A stretch of DNA of 29,818 bases, from NCBI GenBank assembly GCA_031385045.1, contig JANNBC010000035.1:1-29818 (forward strand), given 5' to 3'. Positions 4,147 to 6,090 of this stretch are shown piece by piece (the stretch's first letter is position 1; every line of letters begins with the position of its first letter). The notes beneath the pieces are model-generated. The model had not been told where the DNA came from. It ran no database searches and worked only from the letters and a program-made list of their open reading frames with translations. This DNA comes from a bacterium. Lineage in GTDB: Bacteria > Bdellovibrionota_C > UBA2361 > CALJRW01. Position numbers and translations under genes: made by a program.

Positions 4147-4330
4147 TTGTTTTTTTCTATTAGAAAATAAATGTAATTTTAGTTCTAAAGGATCACTTTC
4201 GATATAGCCTCTAGTCTTAAATTTATCTCCTTGGCAAAAAAGAAGGAGTTGAGCTTTATTCTGTACTGGCAACTAAAACAGGGCTAATTTAGAAACTAGA
4301 ATTTATTCATTAAAGTGAAGAGAGATCTTT

Positions 4331-4539
4331 ATGTCTGACAATCAAGGTAAAAGGGGAGTGGATAGTTTTATCATTTGTACCTCAGCTAGAACAGGAAGTA
4401 CATTACTTTGTAACCTTCTTGAAAGTACTGGTGTTGTTAAGCTCTATCAAACACAGGATGAATTTTATGAGCCTTTTCAAATCGTTACACCAATTGAACC
4501 AGTCTTAAATATACTCAGAGAACCAAGAACCTTCCCATT
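4331..4539 (+). pseudogene. Stf0-like sulfotransferase N-terminal fragment, cut by IS110 at 4540
   Basis: FIICTSARTGSTLLCNLLESTG is the Stf0-type PAPS-binding loop. The ORF (to 4597) reads into the IS110 right end after codons FP. Confidence 0.7.
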
Positions 4540-4554
4540 AGAGACTCTGTTAAT

Positions 4555-4560
4555 AGTCAA
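4555..4560 (-). promoter_or_regulatory. -35 half (TTGACT) of the IS110 circle-junction promoter; -10 half TATGTT at 5768-5773
   Basis: Joining the right and left ends at one CT core gives TTGACT-17 nt-TATGTT directly upstream of the predicted bridge RNA, as known for IS621. Confidence 0.75.
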
Positions 4561-4579
4561 TAAAAAACAATTAAATGTT

Positions 4580-5551
4580 TTAAATATGTTGAGTTAAATA
4601 TCGGTCACTAGACCATTGTTTTCCGTCCCGCACCATCGCATTTAAAGTAATTAGTAGCTTTCTCATACAGGCTACGATAGCAACTTTTCCATTTTTCCCA
4701 GCTTGAACTAATCGAAGGAAAAAGTTTTTAAAGCAAGGATTCATCCGAATAGCTGTCATGGTTGCCATATATAATACTGCTCTGACATGAGTTCTTCCGC
4801 CATAGACAGAACGTTTTCCTGAGTATCGACCGCTTTCTTTGTTAAAAGGAGCTACTCCTACAAGTGCTGCTATTTGCTTTCGATTAATTTTCCCGATTTC
4901 TGGCAGTAATGCAATCAAAGTTGCAGAGGTAGTCTGACCTACACCTTGTATATTTTGTAATAACTGATTTTTATTAGAGAAATCATTATTATCACTAATC
5001 TTAGTTTTAATTTTTTGATTTAAGGTTTTAATTTGTTTATTAATAAAATGAACTACTTCCTCGACTGACATTCTGACTTCTTCTGTTATTACAGGAGCCT
5101 TTAATCTGTTTTTCTCTGCGGTTAAAGTTTCTACCAACTGCTCCCGCCTTAAAATCAGGCTTTTAAGCTCCTTAGTAGCCTCATCCAGAGGTTTCGTTCT
5201 GACAGGGTTCATCCGCTCTCCAAATAGACAGAGAATCTCAGCGTCCAGTAAATCACTCTTCGCATTTCTACCAAGTGACCTAGCAAAGCTCTTCGTCCGG
5301 CTAGGATTTACTACAGAGACAGCTACGCCTTCTACCTGCAGTGCTTCAACAAGCTTCTGCTCGTATCCACCAGTAGCCTCAACAACCACCAAGTAAACAG
5401 CTGATGTTTTAAACAGTTCTACTATTAATTTAATTCCAGAAGAAATATTCTTCTTTCTCATTCTCCTGCAATCTGAAAGATGCACATCTAGGTAATCTTT
5501 GGAAACATCAATCCCAGCATATATTTTATTTGTCATTGACCTTATCTCCAT
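4580..5551 (-). CDS. IS110-family DEDD recombinase/transposase
   Basis: GIDVSKD, VEATGGYE, KSDLLDA (RuvC-like DEDD), IQGVG, and GVAPFNKESG (catalytic Ser loop). Confidence 0.95.
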   Translation of the reverse strand: MEIRSMTNKIYAGIDVSKDYLDVHLSDCRRMRKKNISSGIKLIVELFKTSAVYLVVVEATGGYEQKLVEALQVEGVAVSVVNPSRTKSFARSLGRNAKSDLLDAEILCLFGERMNPVRTKPLDEATKELKSLILRREQLVETLTAEKNRLKAPVITEEVRMSVEEVVHFINKQIKTLNQKIKTKISDNNDFSNKNQLLQNIQGVGQTTSATLIALLPEIGKINRKQIAALVGVAPFNKESGRYSGKRSVYGGRTHVRAVLYMATMTAIRMNPCFKNFFLRLVQAGKNGKVAIVACMRKLLITLNAMVRDGKQWSSDRYLTQHI

Positions 5552-5574
5552 GGTATTAATAATTTAAGTCCAAT

Positions 5575-5762
5575 AAAAAAGAAGCTCATTCTTGCCTAAA
5601 TTCGAACTCGCGAGTTACAAATTCAACGGTTCTAGAGACTCTTCGAGCTTTAATTTTAAAACTGGAGTAGTGACCTATCTAATGGTCGTGTCGTTTACAC
5701 AGGTTTTTCTCGGTCTACTACTCCAGGGACTTGTTTATCTAAATTTATAGATAAATAGAACT
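5575..5762 (-). ncRNA. Predicted IS110 bridge RNA (5' hairpin, target-binding loop, donor-binding loop)
   Basis: 5' hairpin 5734-5755. Stem 5717-5726/5662-5671 encloses GAAAAACCT (5701-5709) and CCATTAG (5679-5685), which match the flanks. Stem 5645-5650/5582-5587 encloses AGAGTCTCT (5634-5642) and GCAAG (5591-5595), which match the element ends. RNA ends are approximate. Confidence 0.85.
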
Positions 5763-5777
5763 TTTTCAACATACAAG

Positions 5778-5976
5778 GTTTTTCCTAACAGCTTGGAAAA
5801 AATCTAATAGATTTTTCAGTGTTTCGGGTTTTAGTATATTTGTCTTCCCCATTATTTAGCCTTATAAAATAAGGCTAAATACCTTGGCGACCCCCAAGGG
5901 TCGCTTTAAGCGCTTCGCGCTTGATATACTAGGCGACTAATTTTAGAACAGTAATTTCTAATGTCGCCTAGTATAT
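5778..5976. repeat. Multi-hairpin dispersed repeat, copy 1 (5' arm missing at IS110 junction)
   Basis: Near-identical to 16340-16534; tandem palindromes such as TATTTAGCCTTAT-AAA-ATAAGGCTAAATA and GCGACCC-CCAA-GGGTCGC. Confidence 0.9.
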
Positions 5977-6090
5977 TCAAGTCTTATCACCAATTGATGT
6001 ACAACAAGACAAACACTGCGGAATTTATCTAGAGATAATTCTAGAATGACATGATGTCGCCAGTCTTTATGTTTTATGTAGGTAAAGTAT

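Follow-up and report, generated by a model that had tools for sequence, protein, structure and literature searches.

Can a bridge recombinase be read completely from the genome in which it lies, that is, can its ends, its guide RNA, its donor, its target and the sites that it has already used all be recognized and matched to one another? The question is raised by an element of about 1.2 kb on the minus strand of the window, by which we mean the whole stretch of 29,818 nucleotides analyzed here; the window is contig C10 of a 2.83-Mb assembly in 61 contigs with 36.8% G+C. The system with which we compare it throughout is IS621 of Escherichia coli, which consists of a recombinase and a 177-nt bridge RNA (Durrant et al. 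2024, PMC11208160; Hiraizumi et al. 2024, PMC11208158).

The initial annotation took the element for an intact IS621-type bridge system with a specificity of its own, and all of the defining features that can be tested at the level of sequence were found. We conclude, with a probability of about 0.9, that we are dealing with an intact insertion sequence (IS) of the IS110 family, IS110 group, which was active recently and works like IS621. The features that place it in the group are a DEDD/Ser recombinase, the lengths of the ends, a covarying RNA, the pairing of both loops of that RNA and a CT core. Expression, circle formation, RNA binding and guided recombination are attributed to the element by analogy with IS621. 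On this analogy, the element would excise as a circle, in which the joined right and left ends would form a sigma-70-type promoter across the CT core, and this junction promoter would drive a bridge RNA of ~185 nt, running from about 5761 to about 5575 in the left end. The DEDD/Ser recombinase would bind the RNA, whose donor-binding loop would pair with both strands of the joined ends and whose target-binding loop would pair with both strands of a 14-bp target, and the element would then be recombined in at the CT core. The features that carry this reading are collected in Table 1.

Table 1. Features of the element and of its two flanks, in window positions.
Feature	Positions	Strand	Basis and remarks
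Whole IS110-group element	4540..5777	-	1238 bp, CT core counted at both ends; ends from junctions and unoccupied sites
CT core, left junction	5776..5777	-	CT before the left end in 5/5 left junctions
-10-like hexamer TATGTT, start of left end	5768..5773	-	17-nt spacer across the junction
5' stem-loop of predicted bridge RNA	5734..5755	-	8 bp; fold
Target-binding loop module	5662..5726	-	65 nt: 14-bp outer stem, internal loop, small inner hairpin; fold and relatives
Left target guide, 9 nt including core	5701..5709	-	Identical to left flank plus core, 5784-5776
Right target guide, 7 nt including core	5679..5685	-	Reverse complement of 4541-4535 (core plus five right-flank bases)
Handshake-guide positions, target-binding loop	5677..5678	-	First (A, 5678) can pair donor position 7 (T)
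Donor-binding loop module	5584..5648	-	65 nt: 4-bp basal stem, internal loop, 29-nt inner hairpin; fold and relatives
Left donor guide, 9 nt including core	5634..5642	-	Identical to right terminus, 4548-4540
Right donor guide, proximal part, 5 nt	5591..5595	-	Pairs core and left-end bases 1-3: 4 Watson-Crick pairs and one G-T
Six-T run directly after donor-loop basal stem	5575..5580	-	Likely 3' end of the RNA
Recombinase gene	4580..5551	-	323 aa as listed; probable start at the second ATG, 5536, giving 318 aa
-35-like hexamer TTGACT, right end	4555..4560	-	Predicted to be active only after circularization
CT core, right junction	4540..4541	-	Present in 10/10 right junctions
Right flank, Stf0-type sulfotransferase N-terminal remnant	4331..4539	+	PF09037 profile positions 1-33; ends at the element
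MITE-like repeat, ~200 bp, whose tip gives the left half of the target	5778..5977	-	55 BLAST rows in own genome

An intact element and its recombinase

Read along the minus strand from 5777 to 4540, the element consists of CT, a noncoding left end of 226 nt, the 323-aa frame, a right end of 40 nt and CT again; long left and short right noncoding ends are described for the IS110 group (PMC11208160). There are no long terminal inverted repeats, and reading by eye we found only a 3-bp inverted pair around the 14-bp donor. In occupied sites, the element sits between the CT core and the right half of the target, with CT on both sides. Because four unoccupied sites carry an uninterrupted 13-base target word, the point of insertion can be placed after the CT core and before the right half of the target.

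The recombinase frame contains the Pfam domains PF01548 (DEDD_Tnp_IS110; 8.1e-21) and PF02371 (Transposase_20; 3.2e-18), and the IS621 structure 8wt6 was matched over residues 11-317 (E 2.8e-36, 128.6 bits). Residues D15, E58, D100, D103 and S240-G241 align with D11, E60, D102, D105 and S241-G242 of IS621, a pairing that we counted by hand on the 8wt6 alignment with a chain offset of +2. Mutation of these residues in IS621 abolishes its recombination (PMC11208158). The corresponding residues are all present in the element, in an open reading frame that is uninterrupted, and are invariant across 9-10 relatives in the protein alignment.

Two in-frame ATG codons lie at 5536-5551 on the minus strand, with a GGAG-like word upstream of the second, from which the relatives align. 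Since M6 is invariant among the relatives, translation probably begins at the second ATG (5536).

In a large protein collection, the closest proteins are 56-61% identical, 61% being the maximum among the proteins listed, and they lie on element-sized metagenome contigs. The best recombinase match in 90 other genomes of the same order reached 46%, and a search of genome contigs with the protein returned only four distant loci. Two recombinase genes from genomes of the order (L027 and L028, in G045 and G057, respectively) contain one in-frame TAA each and may therefore be broken copies.

A covarying RNA in the left end

The left end folds at -52.4 kcal/mol (z -3.9), and none of 200 shuffled sequences was as stable. 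In the predicted RNA, the two loop modules are preceded by a 5' stem-loop, an element that belongs to the consensus RNA of the family (PMC11208160). The run of six Ts after the second module is absent from the list of a simple terminator scan.

From the window and a related metagenome element, L032, we built a covariance model with 24 pairs, which was searched against the window and 93 loci (80 metagenome, 4 genome-contig and 10 same-order loci, less L020, which was left out because it holds only the 3' part of the recombinase gene). The model gave 46 matches in these 94 sources, and in the rows that we compared by eye, the RNA match lies just upstream of the recombinase match. Across the 46 loci, 95.5% of stem cells are paired, as against 36-47% with slid partners, and 20 of the 24 pairs covary, with 240 compensatory double-change cells versus 68 in shuffles; these counts were made on an alignment fitted to the model and lean toward structure. 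In the target module alone, both partners have changed in 12 of the 14 stem pairs among the 46 relatives. An Rfam scan of 4300-6000, at E values up to 1, returned no bridge-RNA family and gave two chance-level matches, both of which lie outside the element.

One structural claim of the initial annotation does not survive this comparison. The donor loop had been described as carrying an apparently extended hairpin, but the whole donor module is 65 nt long versus 68 nt (nt 110-177) in IS621 (PMC11208158). Its inner hairpin, at 29 nt versus a median of 15.5 nt, is the fourth longest of 44 relatives, three of which have one as long or longer. Thus, the module is close to that of IS621 in size and is not an unusual extension; the inner hairpin is long only relative to the relatives sampled.

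Guides, donor and putative junction promoter

All four guide strings fall inside the internal loops of the two predicted stem-loops, with the left target guide on the 5' side of the first internal loop and the right target guide on its 3' side. In IS621, each guide includes the core, and its partner is the bottom strand for the left guides and the top strand for the right ones (PMC11208160). The pattern of sense and antisense among the predicted guides here is exactly that defined for IS621.

The matches themselves are those that the initial annotation had read from the window. The right target guide is complementary to the core and right flank at 7/7 positions, and the five flank bases involved are common to all 10 right junctions; the left donor guide equals the right-end terminus at 9/9, and the right donor guide has the core and the left end as its partners, one of the pairs being G-T. 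The left target guide agrees with the left flank plus core at 9/9 in the window copy, as claimed, but at the four other left junctions the agreement is 8/9, with T in place of A at target position 2. Likewise, the word derived from the guides stands as the predicted target, except that the natural target differs from it at one position and is better written with T or A at position 2. The left target guide word occurs three times in the 29.8-kb window versus 0.72 expected, and the left donor guide word only twice, in the guide and at the right terminus, versus 0.26 expected.

The right donor guide is not flawed by its G-T wobble. IS621 has the same pair at donor position 12: there, donor T12 is the noncanonical partner of G161, and two flipped bases interrupt the right donor guide (PMC11208158). 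In the element, the guide may likewise have a distal part, an A-U at 5601-5600 that could base-pair with left-end bases 5-4 if 4 nt bulged out. The concept of a handshake guide comes from the same report (PMC11208158), and of its two contacts we predict a single one here, because the A that follows the right donor guide cannot pair with target position 7 (C).

The string that the initial annotation expected from circularization, and in which we see a putative junction promoter, is also present, the joined right and left ends reading TTGACT, 17 nt, TATGTT. Left ends of relatives begin with the same TATGTT or a one-base variant of it, and in 22 of 43 related loci the word TTGAC stops 15 nt short of the end of the core. 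A promoter and terminator scan of the linear sequence, which is blind to a junction promoter, found 5 candidates versus 4.2 expected and nothing above shuffles.

Guides in related loci

In each relative, we compared the strings in the loops with that relative's own donor and flanks. The 7-nt left-donor word recurs exactly downstream of the locus's own gene in 45 of 46 loci, in six word variants, and is followed by CT in 43 loci and by TT in two. The right target guide agrees with its own flank at 7/7 in 30 of 43 loci, as against 1 of 1780 cross pairs. For the left target guide, a suffix of at least 7 nt is found upstream in 26 of 43 loci, as against 62 of 1802 cross pairs, some of these cross matches coming from near-identical elements. 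The 5-nt right donor guide word is present in the donor loop of 30 of 46 relatives. Finally, in all 30 loci with a located right target guide, this guide is followed by a base that pairs with donor position 7, as T:A in the window and L032, G:C in 27 loci and G:U in one. The two donor-loop bases that face the core are CT in only 13 of the 46 relatives, and CT is found in 43 of 45 donors; full pairing of the core by the left donor guide is therefore not universal.

L032, the closest relative for which DNA is available, has a recombinase 58% identical to that of the element. The two have the same donor guides, left donor word, start of the left end, RNA architecture and T:A handshake pair, although the donor-loop hairpin of L032 is 4 nt shorter. 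The target guides, in contrast, differ, and those of L032 match its own, different flanks.

These comparisons bear on a quite different account of the left end, in which the protein reads its words directly as DNA (subterminal repeats), and the left end itself is a mere 5' leader with no guide RNA. The left donor guide does repeat the right terminus directly, which would suit a protein site, but compensatory changes maintain the RNA stems in 46 relatives, and the loop words track host DNA that flanks the elements and lies outside them, both across the related loci and in L032. Moreover, a right target guide that is a reverse complement, together with a left one in the same sense, is what the dual-strand RNA pairing of IS621 produces (PMC11208160). 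We therefore regard the DNA-site account as extremely improbable and take the left end to encode a bridge RNA.

The repeat used as target, and the other copies

The right end of the element is found at 10 places in the assembly and the left end at 5, and all except those of the window copy are at contig ends. The element sequence is identical across the junction pieces, except that two right-end pieces differ by one base in length. All nine other right flanks share 15 bases, and all four other left junctions end in one type of repeat, which agrees with the left target guide at 8/9. The initial annotation had named other copies with different ends, or with targets unrelated to the guides, as the evidence that would speak against it; in fact, the ends are shared by all of these copies, and their targets are related.

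The natural target is the tip of a MITE-like repeat and consists of seven target bases, CT and five target bases, to which the guides match at 8/9 and 7/7. As the tip of the repeat lies between two short inverted words, the target would be held in the loop of a hairpin. Nine of 103 repeat ends examined carry the element. Four unoccupied ends match the guides equally well (8/9 and 7/7, with a CT core), and two more match at 7/9 and 7/7. Of the 13 tips in this resident repeat family that match best, the element has thus taken 9. In a second subtype of the repeat, the A at position 2 fits the left guide, but the core is CC, not CT, and the four best cases are unoccupied. The two subtypes differ at the IS target, with T versus A at position 2 and CT versus CC at the core. 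The repeat also has 44 matches in G008, a genome of the same genus, in which a search with the recombinase gave no match at E 1e-40 or better; the repeat is therefore older than the arrival of the element.

Several further observations concern the repeat and its surroundings. It contains internal palindromic modules in addition to the short inverted words at its tip. One stretch of it, 5913-5988, forms a long, perfect-looking hairpin, which gave a chance-level Rfam match to mir-190 (21.4 bits versus a gathering score of 48), and this hairpin module recurs beside other repeat copies (contig C2). An 8-base palindrome near the repeats occurs 28 times versus 11 expected, a signal that is not strong, and the cyanobacterial origin that it had suggested was given up. 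The genome has two Y1-transposase-like (RAYT-like) genes (G000:C28:1008-1289 and G000:C26:104279-104509), the former on a contig that also ends in a left junction of the IS. We considered a link between the target repeat and these genes and found no support for it; the target repeat lies beside neither gene, and there is one weak motif match near one of them.

We also looked for the circle junction and for empty sites in the Logan contigs of four DNA runs (X1, X2, X3 and X6) and found no joints of either kind. This absence says little, because contigs drop rare forms. Nine sequencing runs are listed for this DNA, none of them an RNA run. The loose ends in the run contigs are other copies of the repeat and other copies of the element. 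Contig depth in X1 is 112.6 for the element and 14.1 for the flank, a depth that is not a copy number.

It could be argued that the copies merely look intact and are immobile now, the remains of a finished burst. The lack of circle or empty-site contigs in the four runs and the filling of 9 of the 13 best-matching repeat ends would fit such a history. Against this, the copy ends are identical save for the one-base length difference in two copies, the frame is open with all of the catalytic residues in place, and four good sites are still empty. A finished burst seems to us very improbable, and we retain the reading of an element that has been active recently.

The copy in the window

The copy in the window itself has unusual flanks. 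Its left flank belongs to the second repeat subtype but has a CT core, which makes it the only site in the genome that matches the guides at 9/9 and 7/7. Its right flank has six bases in common with the usual right flank (the right-guide half-site and one more base), after which an 88-aa frame follows. This frame (4331-4597, plus strand) matches PF09037 positions 1-33 of 244 with its residues 12-47, and its tail enters the IS. We found no other piece of the sulfotransferase gene in the assembly and, with this query, no relatives of the remnant in 90 further genomes of the order. The empty site was also sought in the sister genome G008, where the region after the ABC-transporter gene could not be aligned with the window flank.

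Three readings of this copy may be considered. First, the right flank may be a diverged end of the repeat.

Second, the assembler may have joined the junctions of two different copies through the 1.2-kb repeat that the element constitutes, in which case the element itself would still be genuine. All other copies break contigs, and only C10 runs through the element; the right flank in the window is without the repeat tail seen after the nine other right junctions, and 10 right but only 5 left junctions were assembled. Among the public contigs listed, none spans the element together with both unique window flanks, and the element-length pieces have few flank bases and 2 to 4 differing letters. 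Each junction taken singly, however, must exist in the reads, and a 4177-base contig from X1, possibly the source sample, spans the right junction from 4300 to 4563. Moreover, the assembly offers no alternative partner flank for either junction. On balance, we think such a join unlikely.

Third, the copy may be the product of a rearrangement guided by the bridge RNA itself, namely a deletion between the right end of the element and a half-matching site. Recombination at half-matching sites has been reported for IS621 in vitro (bioRxiv 10.64898/2026.08.31.748434). The rest of the sulfotransferase gene and the tail of the MITE are both missing from the assembly, and a deletion would account for a left side that is a perfectly matching MITE tip, a right side that is the interior of a sulfotransferase gene with a half-site, and a missing remainder. 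We put this forward as a doubtful possibility.

Comparison with known systems

The class, its mechanism and its landing in dispersed repeats are already published (PMC11208160). The element adds a clear example of a mechanism described in 2024; the mechanism itself is not new, and what is known of it is unchanged by our analysis. What the element offers is a cleanly decodable natural bridge recombinase with a donor and target of its own. Because the donor, the target, a handshake contact and about 10 natural sites can be read from a single genome, it is a convenient ortholog for comparison at the bench with IS621 and ISCro4.

The likeness to IS621 is extensive. The two share the order of the protein domains, the five catalytic residues and a long left with a short right end; an RNA made of a 5' stem-loop, a 65-nt target-binding module and a donor-binding module of ~65 nt; and a 9-nt left and a 7-nt right target guide, both of which include the CT core. 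By the residue names given in PMC11208158, the right donor half of IS621 consists of the same seven bases as that of the element, and both have a G-T pair at donor position 12. A junction promoter like that of IS621 is predicted in the element. Both, too, have a short palindromic genome repeat as target. The differences are equally plain. The proteins are only distantly similar (128.6 bits over the full length), and the left donor half and the target differ; IS621 targets a REP sequence, whereas the element targets the tip of a MITE-like element of ~200 bp. Distal pairing of the right donor guide in the element would require a larger bulge than in IS621. Furthermore, IS621 has been tested experimentally, whereas the element is known here from its sequence.

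The transposase of ISCro4 (PDB 9t56) belongs to the same family, as its full-length match (E 1.1e-35) indicates. ISCro4 is distant from the element in sequence, and the likeness between the two is one of protein.

Insertion of IS110-family elements into repeated elements (REP sequences) was reportedly described by Tobes and Pareja in 2006. Such REP-targeting elements resemble the present one in their site-specific insertion into a dispersed short repeat; they differ from it in the family of the repeat and in the lineage of the host.
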